Origin: Escherichia coli
GTDB taxonomy: Bacteria; Pseudomonadota; Gammaproteobacteria; Enterobacterales; Enterobacteriaceae
DNA: 64,000 bases
Reading direction: 5' to 3' (one strand)
Assembly: GCF_003334385.1 (NCBI RefSeq)
Contig: NZ_QOWN01000020.1
Position numbers and translations under genes: made by a program. Under the pieces are notes generated by a model. That model ran no database searches. It had not been told where the DNA came from and worked only from the letters and a program-made list of their open reading frames with translations. This document shows positions 3,238 through 32,989 of the stretch, in pieces; the first letter of the stretch is position 1; each line of letters begins with the position of its first letter.

Positions 3238-3889
3238 GCCACTAACCTGGGAAAACGCCTTCTTTGGTGTTAACAGCGCCATCGTGCGCATTACGTCTGA
3301 AGCACCGCTCCTGACGCCAGACGCGTTAGCGCCGTGGTCACGGGTGCAGGCCAAAATTGCGGCATCAAATACGGGTGAACTGGATGCCCTGCAACAGTTG
3401 GGATTCTCCCTGGTAGAAGGTGAAGTTGATTTGGCGCTACCCGTGAACAATGCCAGTGATAGCGGTGCTTTAGTGGCACAAGAGACCGATATTCCCGCAT
3501 TACGTCAGTTAGCCAGCGCCGCATTTGCGCAAAGCCGTTTTCGTGCGCCGTGGTATGCGCCTGACGCCAGCAGTCGCTTTTATGCACAGTGGATTGAAAA
3601 TGCCGTGCGCGGCACCTTTGATCATCAATGTCTGATTTTACGTGCGGCGTCCGGCGATATTCGCGGCTATGTCTCTTTACGGGAACTCAATGCGACAGAT
3701 GCGCGAATTGGCCTGCTGGCTGGACGCGGTGCAGGTGCTGAGCTGATGCAAACGGCGCTAAACTGGGCGTATGCTCGCGGTAAAACAACTTTGCGGGTGG
3801 CGACCCAAATGGGCAACACCGCCGCGCTTAAACGATACATACAAAGTGGTGCGAATGTAGAAAGCACCGCGTACTGGTTATACAGGTGA
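3215..3889 (+). CDS. wecD: dTDP-fucosamine acetyltransferase (GNAT)
   Basis: 224-aa ORF overlapping rffH 3' end by 23 nt; synteny in ECA cluster; an internal alternative start is possible. Confidence 0.8.
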
Positions 3890-3893
3890 TCAC

Positions 3894-5024
3894 ATGATTC
3901 CATTTAACGCACCGCCGGTGGTGGGAACCGAACTCGACTATATGCAGTCGGCAATGGGTAGCGGCAAACTGTGTGGCGATGGCGGTTTTACCCGTCGCTG
4001 CCAGCAGTGGCTGGAGCAACGTTTTGGCAGCGCCAAAGTGTTACTGACGCCGTCCTGCACCGCTTCGCTGGAGATGGCGGCGCTGCTGCTCGATATCCAG
4101 CCTGGCGATGAAGTGATCATGCCGAGCTACACCTTTGTCTCCACCGCCAATGCCTTTGTGCTGCGTGGCGCAAAAATCGTTTTTGTGGATGTTCGCCCGG
4201 ACACCATGAACATCGACGAAACGCTGATTGAAGCGGCGATCACCGACAAAACGCGCGTTATCGTGCCGGTCCATTACGCGGGTGTGGCCTGCGAAATGGA
4301 CACCATTATGGCGTTGGCGAAAAAGCATAATTTGTTTGTGGTAGAAGATGCCGCTCAGGGCGTGATGTCCACTTACAAAGGGCGTGCACTGGGAACCATT
4401 GGTCATATTGGCTGCTTTAGCTTCCATGAAACCAAAAACTACACGGCGGGCGGTGAAGGCGGCGCGACGCTGATTAACGATAAAGCGTTAATCGAACGAG
4501 CCGAGATCATCCGTGAAAAGGGCACTAACCGCAGCCAGTTCTTCCGTGGTCAGGTCGATAAATATACCTGGCGCGATATTGGCTCCAGCTATTTGATGTC
4601 CGATCTGCAAGCTGCATACCTGTGGGCGCAACTGGAAGCAGCGGATCGTATCAACCAGCAACGTCTGGCGCTGTGGCAAAACTACTACGATGCGTTAGCG
4701 CCTCTGGCGAAAGCCGGGCGTATCGAGCTGCCGTCGATTCCCGATGGCTGCGTGCAGAACGCGCATATGTTCTACATTAAACTGCGGGATATTGATGACC
4801 GGAGCGCGTTGATTAACTTTCTGAAAGAAGCGGAAATCATGGCGGTGTTTCATTACATTCCGCTGCACGGTTGCCCTGCGGGGGAACACTTTGGTGAGTT
4901 CCACGGTGAAGATCGCTACACCACCAAAGAGAGCGAGCGCCTGCTGCGCCTGCCGCTGTTCTACAACCTGTCGCCCGTCAATCAGCGTACGGTAATTGCG
5001 ACTTTGTTGAACTACTTTTCCTGA
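3894..5024 (+). CDS. wecE: dTDP-4-amino-4,6-dideoxygalactose transaminase (DegT/PLP family)
   Basis: 376-aa ORF; DegT/DnrJ-type aminotransferase features; synteny. Confidence 0.93.
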   Translation: MIPFNAPPVVGTELDYMQSAMGSGKLCGDGGFTRRCQQWLEQRFGSAKVLLTPSCTASLEMAALLLDIQPGDEVIMPSYTFVSTANAFVLRGAKIVFVDVRPDTMNIDETLIEAAITDKTRVIVPVHYAGVACEMDTIMALAKKHNLFVVEDAAQGVMSTYKGRALGTIGHIGCFSFHETKNYTAGGEGGATLINDKALIERAEIIREKGTNRSQFFRGQVDKYTWRDIGSSYLMSDLQAAYLWAQLEAADRINQQRLALWQNYYDALAPLAKAGRIELPSIPDGCVQNAHMFYIKLRDIDDRSALINFLKEAEIMAVFHYIPLHGCPAGEHFGEFHGEDRYTTKESERLLRLPLFYNLSPVNQRTVIATLLNYFS

Positions 5025-11594: not shown

Positions 11595-11705
11595 CTGTGC
11601 ATTTCGTCACCCTCCCTTCGCAATAAACGCCCGTAATAACTCATTGCCCCACGGTATGATTTCGCCCTTAACGTATTGAAGGATGACTTCAGGCAAGGAG
11701 TGACC

Positions 11706-12941
11706 ATGCTGCAACAGGTTCCAACGCGTGCTTTTCATGTGATGGCGAAACCGAGTGGTTCCGATTGTAATCTGAACTGTGACTACTGTTTTTATCTCGA
11801 AAAACAATCCCTTTACCGCGAAAAGCCAGTCACGCATATGGACGATGACACGCTGGAAGCGTATGTCCGTCACTATATCGCTGCCAGCGAACCGCAAAAC
11901 GAAGTGGCTTTTACCTGGCAGGGCGGCGAACCAACGCTACTCGGGCTGGAGTTTTACCGCCGTGCCGTAGCGCTACAGGCGAAATATGGTGCTGGCAGGA
12001 AGATAAGTAACAGCTTCCAGACTAACGGCGTGCTGCTGGATGACGAATGGTGCGCGTTTCTCGCGGAGCATCATTTTCTTGTTGGTTTATCGCTGGATGG
12101 CCCGCCTGAGATCCACAATCAATATCGCGTGACTAAAGGTGGCAGACCCACGCATAAGCTGGTGATGCGTGCCCTGACGTTCCTGCAAAAACATCATGTC
12201 GACTATAACGTGCTGGTCTGCGTTAATCGCACCAGCGCGCAGCAACCGTTGCAGGTATATGATTTTTTGTGCGATGCGGGAGTGGAATTCATCCAGTTTA
12301 TTCCGGTGGTCGAGCGCCTGGCTGATGAAACGGCTGCCCGCGAAGGACTGAAATTGCATGCGCCTGGTGATATTCAGGGTGAGCTAACGGAATGGTCTGT
12401 GCGCCCCGATGAATTTGGTGAATTTCTGGTGGCGATTTTTGACCACTGGATCAAACGCGACGTCGGCAAGATTTTCGTGATGAATATCGAATGGGCGTTT
12501 GCCAATTTTGTCGGTGCGCCGGGTGCGGTTTGCCATCATCAGCCAACCTGTGGGCGCTCGGTGATTGTTGAGCACAATGGCGACGTTTACGCCTGCGATC
12601 ACTATGTTTATCCGCAATATCGGCTGGGGAATATGCACCAGCAAACAATTGCAGAAATGATCGATTCCCCGCAACAGCAGGTGTTTGGTGAAGATAAATT
12701 TAAGCAGTTACCGGCGCAGTGTCGTAGTTGTAACGTGTTAAAAGCGTGCTGGGGAGGCTGCCCGAAACACCGCTTTATGCTCGATGCCAGCGGCAAGCCT
12801 GGGCTGAATTATTTATGTGCCGGGTATCAGCGTTATTTTCGCCATCTGCCGCCGTATCTTAAAGCAATGTCTGATTTGCTGGCGCATGGCCGCCCGGCCA
12901 GCGACATTATGCATGCGCATTTGCTGGTGGTGAGTAAGTAA
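11706..12941 (+). CDS. aslB: anaerobic sulfatase-maturating enzyme homolog (radical SAM)
   Basis: ORF with CNLNCDYC (CxxxCxxC) radical-SAM motif near N-terminus and additional Cys clusters; start trimmed to ATG at 11706 (MLQQVPTRAF...); adjacent to sulfatase gene. Confidence 0.9.
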   Translation: MLQQVPTRAFHVMAKPSGSDCNLNCDYCFYLEKQSLYREKPVTHMDDDTLEAYVRHYIAASEPQNEVAFTWQGGEPTLLGLEFYRRAVALQAKYGAGRKISNSFQTNGVLLDDEWCAFLAEHHFLVGLSLDGPPEIHNQYRVTKGGRPTHKLVMRALTFLQKHHVDYNVLVCVNRTSAQQPLQVYDFLCDAGVEFIQFIPVVERLADETAAREGLKLHAPGDIQGELTEWSVRPDEFGEFLVAIFDHWIKRDVGKIFVMNIEWAFANFVGAPGAVCHHQPTCGRSVIVEHNGDVYACDHYVYPQYRLGNMHQQTIAEMIDSPQQQVFGEDKFKQLPAQCRSCNVLKACWGGCPKHRFMLDASGKPGLNYLCAGYQRYFRHLPPYLKAMSDLLAHGRPASDIMHAHLLVVSK

Positions 12942-13108: not shown

Positions 13109-14764
13109 TTAGTCAGATTTAATCTGCGCGCGTGGTGGATATTTTTTCAGGATCTCCATATACGCGTGCATTTCGGTCTGTAGCGGTACACCCATCGGAA
13201 TATGGCGCACGCCGATGGAGTCGCTTTCCTGCGGATCGGTGTAGAGGTTAAACACCGACGATCCCGCCGTTTGCATTACTGTGCCGGTGAATCCACCCTG
13301 ATATCCGCTCTGGGTATAAGCGTAAGGTTGCTGAATCAGGACGTGATACTTGAACTCATCCATACGCACAGCAGCGAGTTTACCGTTGAGGAAGTAGTGC
13401 TCGGCCTTACGGTTAGACTGACCATTTGTTCCCAGGAAGAAGGATGTCTGGTCCACACCATCGATAAAGGTGGTTTTCGGCACTAAATTCGCCACTTTCG
13501 CTCCAGGATGCCCTGCCAGATCCAGCGCGGTAGGGAAGAGATCTGCCAGATCGACAATACCGTCAGATTTACGCGGTTGGATCATCCCTTTCCAGTAAAC
13601 GAAAGTCGGTACGCGAACGCCGCCTTCCCAGGTCGAACCTTTCGCACCACGGAACGGGGTGCGTCCGTGCGGCGGTACTTCGGCTTCCGGTCCGTTATCG
13701 GAGGTAAAGACGATCAGCGTGTTATCAAGCTGACCGTTTTTCTCCAGTGTTTTATACAGATTAGCGAACACATCGTTCATCTCCACCATGCAGTCGCCAT
13801 ACGAGGTGCGTGCCGGAGAGCTACCCGCATATTTAGCGTTCGGGTAGTTATCGAAGTGACAGCCGCGAGTGCCGTAATAGAGGAAGAAAGGCTTATCGCT
13901 CTTCGCCATCTTGTCGAGGAACTTAACGCCATATTCCATCCAGCGTTGATCCAGATCTTCCATATATTTCGGCGTAATGTCGGCAATGGCCTGTTGTTCG
14001 CCGCCGCGCACTGCATGAACATCATCTTTGCTGAACGGTAATTGCTTGATGTATTCAGAACGGTCCGGACTCAGGGCCACTTCCGGATTGACGTGAACGT
14101 CGCGCCATTCGGTGTACATATCAGACACCGAGTTAAAGCCACGGAAATCATCAAAGCCAACGTTCTGCGGCTGCGACTCTTTGTTTTCCCCCATATGCCA
14201 TTTCCCGATAGCCTGGGTGACGTAACCTTGGTCGTGCAGCAATTGCGGCAGGGTGGTTAACCCTTGCAGACCTCCCGGTTGCCCGTACATTGGCGGCATC
14301 AGAATGCCGTGGTGGATGGAGTATTGTCCGGTGAGAATGGTGGCGCGGGTTGGGGAAGAGCTTGGTTGAGAATACGCCGACGTTAAAATCAGCCCCTGGC
14401 TGGCAACTGCATCGATATCTGGTGTAGGGTTACCCACCGCCACGCCGCCACCGTTAAAACCGACGTCCATCCAGCCCACATCGTCCAGCAGGAAGATAAC
14501 CACATTGGGCTTCTTACCGGTTTTTTTCTCAAGTTCTGCCAGCTTCTGCTGGGTTTCTTTATCCTGCGCCGGATGCTGCATTACTGGCATCATGTTGTCG
14601 GCAATAGTGGTCGCCGGTTTAACCAGATACTGGTTTGGGTGATCGTATCCGGCAAAGCCTTTGCGTGCGGTGGCAGTTGACGGGGTATCTGCTGCGCTGG
14701 CCATGAGAGGAAGAGCGGCGGCGACAGCAACAACAAGACGTTTGGGTGAAAACGAAATTTCCAT
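13109..14764 (-). CDS. aslA: arylsulfatase (Ser-type sulfatase, periplasmic)
   Basis: 551-aa ORF with N-terminal signal peptide and a sulfatase signature S-x-P-x-R (SSPTR) with Ser in the formylglycine position. Confidence 0.92.
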
Positions 14765-15188
14765 GCAAAATGCTCCGGTTTCATGTCATCAAAATGATGA
14801 CGTAATTAAGCATTGATAATTGAGATCCCTCTCCCTGACAGGATGATTACATAAATAATAGTGACAAAAATAAATTATTTATTTATCCAGAAAATGAATT
14901 GGAAAATCAGGAGAGCGTTTTCAATCCTACCTCTGGCGCAGTTGATATGTAAGGCAGGTTTATTATATCGCGTTGATTATTGATGCTGTTTTTAGTTTTA
15001 ACGGCAATTAATATATGTGTTATTAATTGAATGAATTTTATCATTCATAATAAGTATGTGTAGGATCAAGCTCAGGTTAAATATTCACTCAGGAAGTTAT
15101 TACTCAGGAAGCAAAGAGGATTACAGAATTATCTCATAACAAGTGTTAAGGGATGTTATTTCCCGATTCTCTGTGGCATAATAAACGA

Positions 15189-15395
15189 GTAGATGCTCAT
15201 TCCATCTCTTATGTTCGCCTTAGTGCCTCATAAACTCCGGAATGACGCAGAGCCGTTTACGGTGCTTATCGTCCACTGACAGATGTCGCTTATGCCTCAT
15301 CAGACACCATGGACACAACGTTGAGTGAAGCACCCACTTGTTGTCATACAGACCTGTTTTAACGCCTGCTCCGTAATAAGAGCAGGCGTTTTTTT
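15189..15395 (+). ncRNA. glmZ: small RNA GlmZ (activator of glmS translation)
   Basis: Sequence recognised as GlmZ (GTAGATGCTCATTCCATCTCTTATG...); ends in hairpin GCCTGCTC-CGTAATAAG-AGCAGGCG plus T7; convergent with hemY. Confidence 0.85.
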
Positions 15396-15442: not shown

Positions 15443-16639
15443 CTACTGTGGTGGGTTGTTCTGCAACGTTAACATCAAACCGTCGTGACGCATCGCTGCA
15501 GCTTCTTCCGGCTTGTGCAGTCTGTCCAGCGCGTCGGCAAGCCATGCGTAATCGTAGGCGTCCGGACGTTGTTTCAGCGCTGCGCGGAAGGCGAGCGATG
15601 CTTCCTGCCATTCTCCGTGCTTCATCAGTGACTGGCCCAGTGTGCTCCACAACAGCGGGCGATCGCCGACGTTTTTGATCTGCTGGCGCAGCACTTTTTC
15701 CAGCTGTTCCGGATTGTTGGTTTTCAGTCGAGGAATCGGCAGCAGTAGGCGATCGTCGTACTGGCGTTTCAGGCCATCGATGATAATTTGCTGGGCAGTA
15801 TCATGATCGTCACATTCAATAAGATGTTCCGCCATTGCCACCTGCAACGCTACCTGATGACGCGTTTTCCGGCTTTGGTTTTTCCACCAGTTACGCAAAC
15901 CTTCACTACCGTTATCGGCACGCGCCTGATCCATCAGGCCAATCCATGCCTGTTGTTCCAGCATTGCACGATGTTCTTCATCACCAACATGGGCTTTCGC
16001 CATTGATGGGATGATATCCAGCAGAGAACTCCATGCACCTGTGCGGATATACGCCTGTTCCGCCAGACGTAATACTTCCGGATGGCGTGGCGTAACTTCC
16101 AGCAGCTTATCCACGCCGTGGCGTGCAGCATGGTTTTCATTACGGGCCAGTTGCAGACGTACACGGGTGATTTCTACCGGAATGGTGTCATTGCCGGCCA
16201 GCTCCGCTGCGCGTTCCAGATGTTGGTTGGCGCGCGCTTCATCACCACGTTGTTGCGCGGCTTCGGCAGCCAGTAGATAGTTCACCACCGGTTGTTCAGC
16301 GTGATCGGCATTTTTCGCCATCAGCTTTTCAACTTGCTGATAATCGCCTTCCGCCAGTTTCAGCAGCGCCTGTTCGGTCTGCTTACGTGCACGGCGACGC
16401 TTACGCCCGACAAACCACCCACGGGTGTGCGCGCCAGTGCGGAAGATCCGCCGCAGTAGCCACTCAATGGCAAACAGCACTACCATCGCCAGAATCAATA
16501 TGATCGCCAGGCCCGTGACGCTGGTTTCGATATTGTAGTTGTCGGTCTGGATCAGCACATAACCCTGATGACCGGCAATCATCGGGCCAACCACTATCCC
16601 CGCAATCAGCAACACAAAGAGTAATAACACTTTTAGCAT
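15443..16639 (-). CDS. hemY: HemY protein (TPR-containing inner membrane protein of hemCDXY operon)
   Basis: 398-aa ORF, N-terminal TM helices, synteny downstream of hemX. Confidence 0.93.
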   Translation of the reverse strand: MLKVLLLFVLLIAGIVVGPMIAGHQGYVLIQTDNYNIETSVTGLAIILILAMVVLFAIEWLLRRIFRTGAHTRGWFVGRKRRRARKQTEQALLKLAEGDYQQVEKLMAKNADHAEQPVVNYLLAAEAAQQRGDEARANQHLERAAELAGNDTIPVEITRVRLQLARNENHAARHGVDKLLEVTPRHPEVLRLAEQAYIRTGAWSSLLDIIPSMAKAHVGDEEHRAMLEQQAWIGLMDQARADNGSEGLRNWWKNQSRKTRHQVALQVAMAEHLIECDDHDTAQQIIIDGLKRQYDDRLLLPIPRLKTNNPEQLEKVLRQQIKNVGDRPLLWSTLGQSLMKHGEWQEASLAFRAALKQRPDAYDYAWLADALDRLHKPEEAAAMRHDGLMLTLQNNPPQ

Positions 16640-16641
16640 GG

Positions 16642-17877
16642 TTATTCTCCTTGCGGCGCGGCTGCCGGAGTATCACCTTGCGGTGCAGGTGCAGGTGCAG
16701 GTGCAGGTGCAGGTGCAGGTGCAGGTGCAGGTGCAGGTGCAGGTGCAGGTTTAGCTTCCGTTGTCCCTGCTGCCGGTTGTGCCAGCAGGTTACGCACGCG
16801 AGTCTGCATCAGTTTTTCCAGCATCGCCTGGCTTTGCAGGGTTTCCGGAAGATCCATCGAGATATTTTGCTGGCTTAACTGGTCCACCTCGTCGAGGAAC
16901 GCTTTGGTGGTGGCATCATCAGTATCGTAGTAAGCACGTACCCAGGTGGAGACGTTCTCCAGCGCCTGGCGATAAGTCTCTTCCTGGTGACGCGGTACAG
17001 CTTGTGCTGCGACCAGCAGGCGAGAGCGAATATTTTCGCGCAGATAGATATCCTGATTTGGCGCTAACAGCGGTACGGCGGTGTCATCACGACGGCGAAT
17101 CGTAATGAAGTTGTCCATAAAGTTCTGCCAGCTTTTTTGCAGATTGATACGCCATTCGCTGATGGAACTGGAAAGCTCTTCACCGTCTGAATCCATCGGC
17201 GAACCATCGCTGTCATTATCGGCCAGACGCAGGTTATCTACCTGATTTGAAAGCTGATTAAGCTTAAGGATGATGCCGTCATAATCCACCTGCGATACTG
17301 CAGAAAGGCTGGCGATATCATCGGTAATTGCCCGACGAACGGTAATCAGACTCGGGTCATTCATATCCGCCAGGCTGGCGTCTGCACTTTTCAGCAACGC
17401 TGCAGCGGTCGTGACGTCCTGATCGCTCCACAGCTTCCGTCCGGCGAGTTTCACCAGAAAATCGGCCTGAGCCAGCAGCCAGGTTTTAGCATCGCTGCCG
17501 GAAATGGTGGCGACCTTTTGTTGGACCTCATCCAACTGTTTTGCCAGCGTTTCTTGCTGACGATTCGCCTGCTTAAGCTGTGCAGCTTGTTGCTTAATAA
17601 TGCCTTCCAGCTCGGCTTTTTGGCTCTCCTGGGCTTTTTGCAATGCCGTCAGTTGGTTAGCCAGGGCATCGCTGGTGGCGGTCTGATTGACGGCCTGTTG
17701 TTTACCCCAGCCATACAAACCGACGCCCGCCGCCAGAGCAATAGCGATAGCCACCGCGCTGAGAATCAATGCGGTATTGTTCTTACTCTTTTTTTCTGTT
17801 GCGACAGGTTGTGACGTGGTGTCCACGGCCTCCCTGGTCTCTTCAACCACGGCGGAGGTTTTTTCTTGTTCCGTCAT
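16642..17877 (-). CDS. hemX: HemX protein (inner membrane, coiled-coil, C-terminal Pro-Ala repeat)
   Basis: 411-aa ORF; TM segment near N-terminus, Q/A-rich coiled-coil, C-terminal (PA)11; synteny hemC-hemD-hemX-hemY. Confidence 0.9.
16685..16750. repeat. perfect hexanucleotide tandem repeat (GCAGGT)x11 inside hemX coding sequence
   Basis: Directly visible: 66 nt of uninterrupted GCAGGT units, encoding (Pro-Ala)11 on the minus strand. Confidence 0.98.
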
Positions 17878-19577: not shown

Positions 19578-19803
19578 GCTTGTTACCGTCATTATCATCC
19601 GTGGTCCATCCTAACATCCTTGCCAGAGTGATGTCAGTGTTGTGGTGAAACGTAGACGCCTGCGCAAACCGTAAAATGAGGTCTGGCAGTGGATCCTGAC
19701 AGGCGTTTCACGCCGTTGTAATAAGGAATTTACAGAGAATAAACGGTGCTACACTTGTATGTAGCGCATCTTTCTTTACGGTCAATCAGCAAGGTGTTAA
19801 ATT

Positions 19804-19819
19804 GATCACGTTTTAGACC
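19804..19819. promoter_or_regulatory. CRP-like half-site pair (TGTTA-N6-TCACG) in cyaA upstream region
   Basis: Sequence match only, one mismatch per half-site to TGTGA-N6-TCACA; about 150 bp upstream of cyaA start. Confidence 0.3.
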
Positions 19820-19963
19820 ATTTTTTCGTCGTGAAACTAAAAAAACCAGGCGCGAAAAGTGGTAACGGTTACCTTTGACATACGAAATATCCCGAATGCC
19901 GCGTGTTACCGTTGATGTTGGCGGAATCACAGTCATGACGGGTAGCAAATCAGGCGATACGTC

Positions 19964-30236: not shown

Positions 30237-31187
30237 ATGCTGAGCGCATTTCAACTGGAAAATAACCGACTGACCCGGCTGGAAGTCGAAGAGTCACAAC
30301 CCCTTGTAAATGCAGTATGGATTGATCTTGTCGAACCGGACGACGACGAGCGACTGCGCGTACAATCTGAACTTGGCCAGAGCCTGGCAACCCGCCCGGA
30401 ACTGGAAGACATCGAAGCATCGGCACGTTTCTTTGAAGACGACGACGGCCTGCATATTCACTCCTTCTTCTTCTTTGAAGATGCGGAAGATCACGCCGGT
30501 AACTCCACTGTGGCATTTACCATCCGTGATGGTCGTCTGTTTACTCTGCGTGAGCGTGAACTGCCCGCTTTTCGTCTGTATCGTATGCGTGCCCGTAGCC
30601 AGTCGATGGTAGACGGTAACGCCTACGAGTTGCTGCTGGATCTGTTCGAAACCAAAATCGAACAGTTGGCAGATGAAATTGAAAATATCTATAGCGACCT
30701 GGAGCAGTTGAGCCGGGTGATTATGGAAGGGCATCAGGGCGATGAGTACGACGAGGCGCTCTCCACTCTGGCGGAACTGGAAGATATCGGCTGGAAAGTT
30801 CGCCTGTGTCTGATGGATACCCAGCGCGCGCTCAACTTCCTGGTGCGTAAAGCGCGTTTACCGGGTGGGCAACTGGAGCAGGCGCGTGAAATCCTGCGAG
30901 ATATCGAATCCCTGCTGCCGCATAACGAATCCCTGTTCCAGAAGGTGAACTTCCTGATGCAGGCGGCAATGGGTTTTATCAACATCGAGCAGAACCGCAT
31001 CATCAAAATCTTCTCGGTGGTATCCGTGGTATTCCTGCCGCCGACGCTCGTTGCTTCCAGCTATGGCATGAACTTTGAGTTTATGCCAGAACTGAAGTGG
31101 AGCTTCGGCTACCCTGGCGCGATTATCTTTATGATCCTCGCGGGCCTGGCACCGTATCTGTACTTTAAGCGGAAGAACTGGTTGTAA
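30237..31187 (+). CDS. corA: magnesium/cobalt transporter CorA
   Basis: 316-aa ORF (start [10 protein letters not shown]); C-terminal two TM helices and the signature YGMNF motif. Confidence 0.95.
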
Positions 31188-31198
31188 AAAACGAGAGC

Positions 31199-31223
31199 GG
31201 TGGCTTAGTCTGGCTAAGCCACC
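31199..31223. terminator. hairpin between convergent corA and yigF (probable bidirectional terminator)
   Basis: GGTGGCTTAG-TCTGG-CTAAGCCACC palindrome; T-run on minus strand side, weak T-run on plus side. Confidence 0.55.
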
Positions 31224-31229
31224 TGTTAT

Positions 31230-31610
31230 TCAAAGGCTCCAGGTATTTAACCCTTTTACCTCTTTCTCATAGAACCATTTGTTCGTGTTAACAGCAACAT
31301 AGGCTGCTACGGCAATTCCCAGAATGTTAACGCCAATTAGTGCACCAACAAATAGAGATAGAATACCAAGTAATAGAACTATAATTGCTTTTTTCCATAA
31401 CCCCAGGACAAATAAATATATCCAGGAACAGAAGAAAGCAATGAAATTCATTTGAATAGTTAAGCGTTGTCTTACTTTTAATGCTTTAAATGCTGCTTTA
31501 TATTCTGGTGTTGCCCCCCAGAATCCAGGAAAACCATGTTGATCATAAAAATTAAATCGGTATTTCCATTTTTCACTTAATGAACCATCGTTCATATATT
31601 CCTTACTCAT
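31230..31610 (-). CDS. yigF: small inner membrane protein, DUF2628 family
   Basis: ORF trimmed to MSKEYMNDGSL start (126 aa); two hydrophobic helices; AT-rich codon usage. Confidence 0.7.
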   Translation of the reverse strand: MSKEYMNDGSLSEKWKYRFNFYDQHGFPGFWGATPEYKAAFKALKVRQRLTIQMNFIAFFCSWIYLFVLGLWKKAIIVLLLGILSLFVGALIGVNILGIAVAAYVAVNTNKWFYEKEVKGLNTWSL

Positions 31611-31623
31611 AAATACTCCATAA

Positions 31624-32004
31624 CTATTGTTTTGATGAATCAGTAGGTGCAAGCATTAGCATACTGAAAGTGGAAAAATAACAAATCAAAAAAATCATCG
31701 AACCATTGCCTGAACAGGCAAAATCTTCGGCTATCATTGTGATGATAGAGATGATATATACTGCTAATGTACCAAAAACATAAGTTTTTATATAGATGAA
31801 ACCACTATCACGGAGTCGCTGGCAATTCATGTTGATGACGAGATAATGGAGTACGATGGTAGAGACTATAACAAGAAAGCCTGCTTCTCCATCGTTAAAA
31901 AAGATAATAAGAAAGGCAAAAATGAAATTTATTAAAATAAATGAAAATATATAACGACGTCTGGAAATCTTACCGTTAGATGTTGGGATAAATATACGTA
32001 ACAT
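31624..32004 (-). CDS. yigG: small inner membrane protein of unknown function
   Basis: ORF trimmed to [12 protein letters not shown] start (about 126 aa); hydrophobic; AT-rich; start is uncertain. Confidence 0.65.
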
Positions 32005-32098
32005 AAATTTTACATCCTTGTATGAGTCTCCGGTCAGCATGGCAATATGCCCACTCTCATGCAAGAGTCGGCATATTTTTTCAGAATATATTTATTTT

Positions 32099-32989
32099 TT
32101 ATTTGGACGTTCTACGCTGCGTATAAATCGCATCCATCACAAAAATTGCCAGCGCCACCCAAATAAAGGCGAAAGTCACCATCTTATCGGCACCCGGTTT
32201 TTCACCATAAAACGTCACAGCCAGCAGGAACATCAGCGTCGGGCCAATGTACTGGAAAAAGCCTAACGTTGAGAGACGCAAGCGCGTGGCAGCGGCGGTA
32301 AAACACAACAGCGGTACGGTAGTGACAATACCGGCGGCGATCAGCAGTAAATTCAGCGACATCGGGTTTTGCCCCATATGGCTGGTTGAGCTGTCGGCAA
32401 TAGCAAACAGGTAAATTGCCGCCACGGGCAGCAGCCACATGGTTTCGATTAACATGCCGGTTTGCGCTTCAACGGCAATCTTCTTGCGTACCAGACCGTA
32501 GAAGGCAAAACTAAATGCCAGTCCCAGCGCGATAATAGGTAGCGAACCAAAAGTCCACAGCTGGACTAACACGCCACATATCGCCAGAATCACCGCCAGC
32601 CATTGCATCCGGCGGAATCGCTCGCCGAGGAAAATCATCCCCAGCACAATGTTCACCAGCGGGTTAATAAAGTAACCAAGGCTCGCTTCCAGCATATGGT
32701 GATTGTTCACCGCCCAGATAAACAGTAGCCAGTTGCCACCAATCAGCACGGCAGAGACTGCCAGCATAAAAATTTTCTGTGGCGTCTGAATCAGCGTTTT
32801 TAAATAGGACCACTGGCGGCAAATGCTCATCAGCACCACCATAAAGAAAAACGACCAGATCACGCGATGCGTCAGGATTTCATCGGCGGGCACGTAGTAA
32901 ATCAACTTGAAGTACGCTGGCGCTATACCCCAAATAAAATAAGCGGCAAGAGCGAGTAATACGCCCTGCCGCGTTTGTTTTGCATCCAT
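32099..32989 (-). CDS. rarD: RarD, EamA/DMT-family transporter
   Basis: 296-aa polytopic ORF; DMT superfamily features. Confidence 0.9.
   Translation of the reverse strand: MDAKQTRQGVLLALAAYFIWGIAPAYFKLIYYVPADEILTHRVIWSFFFMVVLMSICRQWSYLKTLIQTPQKIFMLAVSAVLIGGNWLLFIWAVNNHHMLEASLGYFINPLVNIVLGMIFLGERFRRMQWLAVILAICGVLVQLWTFGSLPIIALGLAFSFAFYGLVRKKIAVEAQTGMLIETMWLLPVAAIYLFAIADSSTSHMGQNPMSLNLLLIAAGIVTTVPLLCFTAAATRLRLSTLGFFQYIGPTLMFLLAVTFYGEKPGADKMVTFAFIWVALAIFVMDAIYTQRRTSK

Follow-up and report, generated by a model that had tools for sequence, protein, structure and literature searches.

The control regions of glmZ and glmY, as set out in the portions of Göpel et al. 2011 (PMC3045617) to which we refer throughout, carry, in Enterobacterales, three GlrR/QseF sites, IHF sites and a sigma54 promoter, which in some cases overlaps a sigma70 promoter. 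For glmZ of Escherichia coli, the same portions report expression that is independent of glrR and rpoN, a fragment from -424 to +32 that is left unbound by GlrR, 5' deletions showing that DNA upstream of -40 is dispensable, and -35 and -10 mutations that abolish expression; the conclusion drawn there is that one constitutive sigma70 promoter alone drives glmZ in E. coli. Loss of sigma54 control is described as gradual, and those portions draw no link to aslA, the gene on the other side of the control region. A different body of work concerns AT-rich promoters bound by H-NS, such as bgl, proU and the 'HNS' type-A spacers of Shimada et al. 2014 (PMC3946193). In that genomic SELEX survey, the aslA<>glmZ spacer (85.83 min) has both an RpoD-holoenzyme site and an H-NS site; the 'HNS' mark denotes one of 987 SELEX-defined H-NS sites, was obtained in vitro, and is resolved to the whole spacer rather than to parts of it. 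A third point of comparison is provided by tRNA-adjacent islets. The kind of feature treated here is thus known, and earlier studies have examined the spacer itself, dissecting it for glmZ and listing its H-NS and RpoD binding. What our comparisons would add is a footprinted promoter and leader for aslA, and the proposal that this AT-rich DNA is carried by an aslA–aslB cassette lying at the enhancer position.

The spacer was analysed within a 64,000-nucleotide stretch of E. coli chromosome running from wecC to hemG (hereafter the window). Because aslA, on the minus strand, reaches up to 14764 and glmZ begins at 15189, its boundaries are exact (Table 1), and its sequence is identical to positions 3986008-3986431 of MG1655; outside the spacer, the segment differs from MG1655, with 1.9% divergence in aslA and a longer Pro-Ala repeat in hemX. 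The spacer was found in all 5426 of 5426 complete E. coli genomes, including strains in which aslA is cut to its first 138 bp. The closest homologues of AslA are Pfam PF00884 sulfatases, and aslA has been named as a virulence factor of meningitis E. coli. The first-pass annotation had singled out an AT-rich region upstream of aslA and glmZ, and windowed GC bears this out, with 32.5% in the spacer against 52.7% in the window. Of the annotated intergenic regions in the 64 kb that measure 60 bp or more, 26 in all, it is both the longest and the lowest in GC; equally low GC is reached in just 0.33% of 424-bp windows, the sole other trough lying at about 31119-32300. Relative to the 26 regions (mean GC 0.451, sd 0.059), it falls about 2.1 sd under the mean; the yigI-pldA intergenic region, for comparison, has a GC of 0.354. 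The spacer therefore belongs to the AT-rich tail of normal E. coli intergenic DNA and is not an extreme outlier.

We consider it probable that the spacer is a composite, back-to-back control region, nearly all of which is aslA's: a leader, a weak sigma70 promoter, an AT-rich tract and, at the far end, the glmZ core promoter. According to this model, a moderately weak CTTACA-18-TAGGAT promoter reading leftward from about 14953 would start aslA transcription near 14917, and the resulting leader of about 153 nt would form a small stem-loop followed by GGAG and the ATG at 14764. Rightward, the last 40 bp or so by themselves make up the constitutive extended -10 promoter of glmZ. H-NS would bind and spread from the 187-bp centre (GC 29%), so that aslA would be damped until an activator or a change of condition relieves it. 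The AT-rich leader would be carried by a transferable aslA–aslB cassette, whose site in Escherichia is the interval between the proM terminator and glmZ, the same position that holds a GlrR/sigma54 enhancer in most Enterobacterales. The boundaries, composition, conservation pattern and cassette distribution were observed directly, and the reach of the glmZ promoter and the in vitro binding of H-NS and RNA polymerase are taken from the two publications above. Four elements of this model, namely the aslA start, the position of H-NS in the spacer, silencing in vivo and a role for the stem-loop, are what we infer.

Table 1. Features of the aslA–glmZ spacer and its neighbours (window coordinates)
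Feature	Position	Strand	Basis or remark
aslB	11676-12941	+	ORF
aslA, putative arylsulfatase, 551 aa	13109-14764	-	ORF; coding GC 0.53
aslA–glmZ intergenic spacer, whole	14765-15188		424 bp, GC 0.325
Probable aslA 5' leader, ~153 nt, GC 0.327	14765-14917	-	Start deduced from predicted promoter
aslA Shine-Dalgarno GGAG	14773-14776	-	8 nt before ATG; kept in every aligned aslA upstream region
Palindrome / RNA stem-loop GTCATCA-AAA-TGATGAC	14785-14801	-	21-37 nt upstream of aslA start codon
Core aslA promoter, predicted sigma70-like	14918-14953	-	Cross-genus comparison
Predicted aslA -10 hexamer TAGGAT	14924-14929	-	Phylogenetic footprint
Predicted aslA -35 hexamer CTTACA	14948-14953	-	Phylogenetic footprint; 18 bp to -10
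Most AT-rich core between divergent core promoters, GC 0.294	14954-15140		187 bp; candidate H-NS tract
Conserved block TTGATTATTGATGC	14973-14986		~-56 to -69 from predicted aslA start
Perfect 9-bp inverted repeat CAATTAATA-N7-TATTAATTG	15005-15029		Sequence; partly conserved in other Escherichia species
Direct repeat ACTCAGGAAG	15087-15111		Two copies, starts 15 bp apart
glmZ core sigma70 promoter, -40 to -1	15149-15188	+	Göpel et al. 2011 (portions cited); extended -10 TGgCATAAT 15174-15182
glmZ small RNA with intrinsic terminator	15189-15395	+	Rfam RF00083, 218 bits, E = 1e-57, full-length; terminator 15361-15390
hemY	15443-16639	-	ORF

The predicted aslA promoter comes from an alignment, in the aslA direction, of the ten upstream regions whose genes encode proteins with at least 82% AslA identity. 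The conserved islands of these regions are the start codon, GGAG and a pair of hexamers located 100-190 nt before the ATG; outside such islands, alignments of AT-rich DNA between genera are uncertain. YTTACA is kept in ten of ten regions, and every one of them, across two genomic contexts, aligns a -10 counterpart with it (TAGGAT, TAGTAT, TATAAG or TATATT), the 15-18 bp that separate the hexamers being divergent in sequence. The pattern of the pair was defined post hoc and is found in about 1.5% of shuffles per spacer. Transcription of aslA is accordingly predicted from this footprint alignment to begin near 14917. TAGGAT with an 18-bp spacer makes a weak promoter, and a PWM scan places other minus-strand candidates above it. 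Little weight was given to the simple promoter scan, since the glmZ promoter, which is established by experiment, escapes it. Shimada et al. 2014 (PMC3946193) guessed a different aslA promoter from consensus, TTAACA-18-TGTAAT, which maps here to the minus strand at 15148-15119, and also proposed a rightward promoter in the spacer, TTGAGA-17-GATGAT.

Outside these predictions, the literature on aslA control is thin. A supplement of E. coli and Klebsiella transcription start sites has no entry for the spacer, and neither a start site nor a characterised regulator of aslA is described in the searchable literature, where an indirect RpoE effect in a K1 strain is the only lead to a regulator. Another apparent lead, a match to SELEX in a paper on RstA, proved to be the name of a company. 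For some of the data, the passages to which we refer in the Term-seq tables of Adams et al. 2021 list a 3' end internal to aslA (3984899, minus strand), and aslA is therefore transcribed at least sometimes.

Within the leader, the 7-bp stem at 14785-14801 has a predicted dG of -7.9 kcal/mol (z = -2.7 relative to shuffles). E. albertii carries a compensatory double change in the stem (GACATCA/TGATGTC), and hairpins of different sequence are found at the same position in Salmonella, Citrobacter wls619 and Pseudocitrobacter, though absent from Superficieibacter and Kluyvera. Conservation of a stem-loop ahead of the Shine-Dalgarno sequence is suggestive, and only suggestive, of a role. A potential long-range stem between 14819-14834 and 14910-14925 (81% complementary) was also considered and set aside: it is not kept in B2 E. 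coli or in Escherichia sp. E69, Pseudocitrobacter is deleted there, and the fold z-scores are unremarkable.

On the glmZ side, about 380 of the 424 bp are not glmZ control DNA, given that, in the cited portions of Göpel et al. 2011, -40 to +1 suffices for glmZ and the -424 to +32 fragment is left unbound by GlrR. The -10 motif TGTGnnATAAT is common to all genera aligned, among them those in which sigma70 and sigma54 promoters overlap. The spacer also resembles the glmZ/glmY control regions in its position relative to glmZ. Unlike them, it possesses neither GlrR sites nor a TGGCAC -24 element, its DNA beyond about -45 to -70 is unrelated to theirs and is aslA's, and, as far as the cited portions of that study go (PMC3045617), sigma54 is not needed for glmZ in E. 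coli.

A pattern scan for glmZ in species-representative genomes yielded 120 loci, of which the 112 with at least 320 bp of upstream sequence were scanned for motifs. In 11 of the 14 loci whose gene order was examined, thrP-argX-hisR-leuT-proM is followed by a spacer of about 145-400 bp and then by glmZ. The genes aslB and aslA are located between the proM terminator and glmZ in E. coli, E. albertii, two further Escherichia, Pseudocitrobacter faecalis, Superficieibacter electus and Kluyvera, and in these lineages the aslA–glmZ spacer measures 402-496 bp with a GC of 0.30-0.34. AslA homologues with 83-84% identity are also found in one Salmonella enterica and in Citrobacter sp. wls619; here, aslA resides downstream of maeB, far from glmZ. 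In Citrobacter sp. wls619, aslB comes next after aslA; the Salmonella contig stops about 120 bp past aslA, placing any aslB there beyond view. The two maeB-side genes are preceded by spacers of 442 bp (GC 0.353) and 616 bp (GC 0.310). Thus, in both contexts, the DNA upstream of aslA has a GC of 0.30-0.35 over 402-616 bp, YTTACA-N15-18-TA..A. hexamers, GGAG and often a hairpin ahead of the Shine-Dalgarno sequence. In C. freundii and Enterobacter sp. PGRG2, where the homologues are more distant (73-76% identity), the spacer upstream of the gene is short and lacks the promoter and leader features. As judged from these comparisons, the AT-rich leader is part of the aslA–aslB cassette, and the DNA belongs to aslA.

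The cassette shares several properties with tRNA-adjacent islets. The aslB–aslA pair follows directly on the proM tRNA terminator, its presence varies between close relatives (found in Superficieibacter electus, missing from Superficieibacter sp. 1612_C1), and a second locus exists beside maeB in other genera. Unlike islets, it has cargo of ordinary GC and comes with no integrase, aslB and aslA being the only genes between proM and glmZ, and the spacer contains no repeat of the tRNA 3' end. A candidate for such a tRNA-derived att repeat, at 14822-14842, was discarded, as its alignment score against the proM 3' end is within the shuffle range. Homologous recombination through the conserved flanks is just as likely a route of spread as site-specific integration.

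The first-pass annotation had further proposed that the spacer is H-NS-bound, curved promoter DNA. The binding part of this proposal agrees with the in vitro SELEX data of Shimada et al. 2014 (PMC3946193), and the curvature part finds no support in either a wedge model or AA/TT phasing. By end-to-end ratio in the wedge model, 120-bp windows of the spacer range from the 7th to the 95th percentile of the window, only the relative ranks being trustworthy; the lowest ranks belong to windows situated mostly within the aslA coding sequence, and the most curved site of the window is elsewhere, in the hemC–cyaA spacer (19750-19890). A-tract phasing was likewise unexceptional, since 38% of shuffles have AA/TT power at 9.5-11.5 bp that is as high or higher. 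The spacer has a density of TpA steps 2.3 times that of the window, and there are 14 loose matches to the H-NS consensus where 3.1 are expected per 424 bp, an excess that follows from the AT-rich composition alone. Neither in vivo H-NS occupancy of the spacer nor aslA expression in hns mutants is reported in the searchable literature, and the nine supplementary files of Cooper 2024, on H-NS, mention none of aslA, aslB, glmZ and hemY.

The spacer thus resembles known H-NS-bound promoters in being rich in AT and TpA, in belonging to a gene that is patchy across genera, and in appearing in both SELEX lists, for RNA polymerase holoenzyme and for H-NS. It differs from H-NS-silenced promoters in that only the spacer is AT-rich: aslA and aslB have a normal GC (0.53), and consequently there is no extended AT-rich island to coat. 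It differs also in having no predicted curvature, and in bearing a constitutive glmZ promoter at one end. Within the spacer, 14954-15140 is the likeliest H-NS tract. Since glmZ, about 40 bp away, is constitutively expressed, any H-NS filament would not silence the whole spacer.

Divergence was measured from the window sequence to B2 E. coli and to three other Escherichia species. To B2 E. coli, it amounts to 3.3% in the presumed leader, 2.8% in the core aslA promoter and 2.1% in the glmZ core promoter, compared with 9.6% in the 14954-15140 tract, 19.6% at 4-fold sites of aslA and 10.6% at 4-fold sites of hemY. To the three other species, the leader diverges by 11-20%, the core aslA promoter by 14-17% and the glmZ core promoter by 17-21%, the corresponding figures for the tract and for aslA 4-fold sites being 27-35% and 28-39%. 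Leader and core aslA promoter therefore change two to six times more slowly than 4-fold sites, whether of aslA or of hemY. The leader and both core promoters are constrained; the tract undergoes near-neutral turnover, with its length and AT-rich composition kept across lineages.

Such turnover is what one would expect if the tract outside the core promoters were functionless filler, created by AT-biased mutation pressure and bound by H-NS as an inconsequential by-product. Besides diverging at about the rate of 4-fold sites, the tract has direct and inverted repeats that are unconserved, its DNA is dispensable for glmZ expression in the cited portions of Göpel et al. 2011, and the spacer both tolerates IS1 insertions and serves as an integration site in strain engineering. 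However, a length of 402-616 bp and a GC of 0.30-0.35 have been held in six lineages and two genomic contexts despite the turnover of sequence, H-NS and RNA polymerase both select the spacer in vitro (PMC3946193), and the remaining 25 intergenic regions in the 64 kb average a GC of 0.45, so that drift alone seldom goes this far; we regard filler as unlikely. The suggestion made earlier that the spacer might hide an unannotated small protein gene or small RNA fares considerably worse and is, in our estimation, very improbable. Drawing ORFs within the spacer or across its edges gives fifteen of 10-45 codons, but not one of them is both preceded by a Shine-Dalgarno match and preserved in the four other Escherichia sequences used for the purpose (B2 E. 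coli, E. albertii and two other species), and the longest two, of 40 and 45 aa, are broken in all four. RNA polymerase holoenzyme does bind the spacer in vitro (PMC3946193), and plus-strand promoter-like matches occur at 14820-14862; nevertheless, promoter-like matches are not enriched over shuffles (3 against 2.3 expected). There is no Rfam match within the spacer up to E = 1, no terminator-like site, and no feature in the RefSeq annotation of MG1655, even though that annotation includes recently validated small proteins such as ysgD. The fold z-scores of the spacer are -1.8 on the minus strand and -0.6 on the plus strand. In the Term-seq passages of Adams et al. 2021 to which we refer, with neighbouring rows running from 3984899 to 3986582, no 3' end falls inside MG1655 3986008-3986431, and the 3' ends nearby are those of proM, the aslA-internal site, the glmZ processing site and the hemY terminator. 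The tract that would have to host such a gene, moreover, evolves at a neutral rate.

A further alternative derives the AT-rich DNA from glmZ itself, as the decayed remnant of an ancestral upstream activating region (GlrR, IHF and sigma54) that drifted after the switch to sigma70. Its position upstream of glmZ does match the enhancer site of other genera, and IHF sites are AT-rich, but several observations speak against such a remnant. The GlrR motif TGTC-N10-GACA, with one mismatch allowed, is absent from the 260 bp upstream of E. coli glmZ and from the 320 bp upstream of glmZ in three other Escherichia species; a GlrR-like site at the TGTCATCAAAATGATGACG palindrome drops out, its spacing being 11 rather than 10, and GlrR left the -424 to +32 fragment unbound in the cited portions of Göpel et al. 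2011 (PMC3045617). The E. coli spacer ceases to resemble the enhancer-bearing genera (Salmonella, Citrobacter, Enterobacter) at about -45, and Superficieibacter sp. 1612_C1 at about -70, whereas it aligns, hexamers and leader included, with the regions upstream of maeB-adjacent aslA. A decayed enhancer is hence most unlikely. The composite aslA–glmZ control region that we favour raises the possibility that the incoming aslB–aslA cassette, bringing an AT-rich, H-NS-binding leader of its own, physically displaced the GlrR/IHF/sigma54 enhancer and left glmZ under constitutive sigma70 control in Escherichia, Pseudocitrobacter, Kluyvera and Superficieibacter electus, a scenario to which we give somewhat less than an even chance. 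Among the 106 loci without an adjacent aslA, 93 have at least two GlrR sites (TGTC-N10-GACA, one mismatch allowed), 98 have the sigma54 element TGGCAY-N6-TGC, and 92 have at least two GlrR sites together with the sigma54 promoter. No GlrR site is found at any aslA-adjacent locus and no sigma54 element at any of the six with enough upstream sequence, which all lack both (Fisher p 7e-7, the loci being uncorrected for phylogeny). Yet GlrR sites and the sigma54 element are likewise missing from seven loci that have no aslA, and Superficieibacter sp. 1612_C1 has a sigma70-type glmZ promoter and no cassette, which makes the causal order of cassette gain and enhancer loss ambiguous. If the replacement did occur, a horizontal insertion would have rewired the regulation of a neighbouring, conserved small RNA of envelope homeostasis.

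For annotation, a conspicuous AT-rich gap is resolved into parts that are ordinary or already known, and the suspicion of a hidden gene is removed. A concrete predicted promoter and leader become available for aslA, on whose regulation in K-12 the searchable literature says next to nothing, and the position of the cassette could account for the loss of GlrR/sigma54 control that has been published for Escherichia, by offering a structural account of how glmZ escaped it. There is also a practical side for strain engineering: the aslA–glmZ integration site, used as 'neutral', holds a predicted aslA promoter, its leader and a probable H-NS tract, and inserted reporters could be affected for that reason.

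Several smaller elements were located within the spacer. The TCAGGAAG string, which the first-pass annotation had reported as occurring twice, is indeed present in two copies, each within a perfect 10-bp direct repeat, ACTCAGGAAG, at 15087-15096 and 15102-15111; the A/T-rich string that it also quoted is located at 14851-14886. E. albertii and two other Escherichia species do not preserve the second ACTCAGGAAG copy, and the repeat is for this reason probably incidental; it sits in DNA that the deletions in the cited portions of Göpel et al. 2011 identify as dispensable for glmZ transcription. Inverted repeats such as CAATTAATA-N7-TATTAATTG are expected more often in AT-rich DNA. Sites for FNR and ArcA were looked for by eye at TTGATTATTGATGC and GTTATTAATT and dismissed, there being half-sites that lack the required dyad or 11-bp direct repeat. 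In alignments, the TTGATTATTGATGC block is kept across Escherichia species and largely in Pseudocitrobacter, and it may represent a possible regulator site.

Sequence comparison shows aslA, the sulfatase gene adjoining the spacer (the AT-rich aslA–glmZ intergenic DNA), to be an unusually divergent gene within E. coli: at 4-fold sites, the window copy differs by 19.6% from that of a B2 strain, roughly double the hemY figure. Relative to MG1655, the window copy of aslA differs by 1.9% and the neighbouring spacer is 100% identical, a combination that indicates a mosaic produced by recombination, with one breakpoint close to where aslA starts. On a larger scale, AslA homologues were found outside Enterobacterales at 67-76% identity, with 75-76% for those of the betaproteobacterium Uliginosibacterium, of a deltaproteobacterium and of an endosymbiont; Candidatus Berkiella carries a homologue at 67% identity, and those of Legionella and Bacteroidota stand at 66-68%. 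The occurrence of homologues in such a range of hosts points to a wide horizontal spread of the AslA sulfatase.

The genus Superficieibacter is the key case for the order of events, namely whether the glmZ enhancer (the GlrR/sigma54 control DNA found at glmZ elsewhere) was lost before or after the aslB–aslA cassette was gained. The cassette is present in Superficieibacter electus and absent in Superficieibacter sp. 1612_C1. The same sigma70-type glmZ promoter is common to the two species, and it includes a palindrome, ATCCAGAAT.CTCTGGAT, located at about -70.

Disrupted forms of the locus were also encountered in other E. coli strains. Several of them align with the query (the sequence around the spacer used to search complete E. 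coli genomes) only from position 27 on, an O111:H8 strain and NCTC8623 being among the matches listed. The structure of the aslA remnant was read in one such strain, TKEC21-17, where aslA is cut to its first 138 bp, with aslB and the entire AT-rich spacer intact. Two independent IS1 events were identified in the spacer. In strain 2018-02-2CC, a 768-bp IS1 flanked by a 9-bp target duplication (GACGTAATT) lies within the aslA leader, 35-43 bp upstream of the ATG; in strain PSS-16, IS1 abuts the retained part of the spacer, the remainder of which is deleted together with the 5' half of aslA.

Coordinates of the features discussed (window positions unless a strain locus is named)
Feature	Position	Strand
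AT-rich spacer	14765-15188	
aslA	13109-14764	-
IS1 target duplication (2018-02-2CC)	14799-14807	
IS1 junction (PSS-16)	15139	
3' end antisense to glmZ	~15353 (MG1655 3986596)	-
End of query match, position ~799	~15398	
hemX	16642-17877	
hemC–cyaA spacer	19750-19890	
yigF/yigG trough	~31119-32300	
aslA remnant	TKEC21-17 locus 1502-1639	
Extra ORF	S22EC locus 3795-4385	

On the other side of glmZ, towards hemY, some strains, including S22EC and 2020C08-115, possess an additional hypothetical ORF of 196 aa that lies between these two genes, and in strains with this ORF the query match stops at the position tabulated. Antisense to glmZ, a minus-strand 3' end is recorded in one of the supplementary tables of Adams et al. 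2021, which suggests read-through in the hemY direction across the sRNA gene. Further along, hemX encodes 411 aa in the window versus 393 aa in MG1655, the gap corresponding to a longer Pro-Ala repeat (GCTGGT/CAGGTG-type) close to the C-terminus; the annotated hemX length varies among the fetched E. coli strains.

Besides the spacer, the window contains a sole low-GC trough, with a minimum GC of 0.309 in 424-bp windows. This trough coincides with the coding sequences of yigF and yigG (MG1655 GC of 0.35 and 0.33, respectively), so that the AT-richness there resides in the genes themselves, whereas aslA and aslB are not AT-rich. The strongest intrinsic DNA curvature of the 64 kb is predicted by the wedge model for the hemC–cyaA spacer, with an end-to-end/contour ratio of 0.73 against a mean of 0.96.
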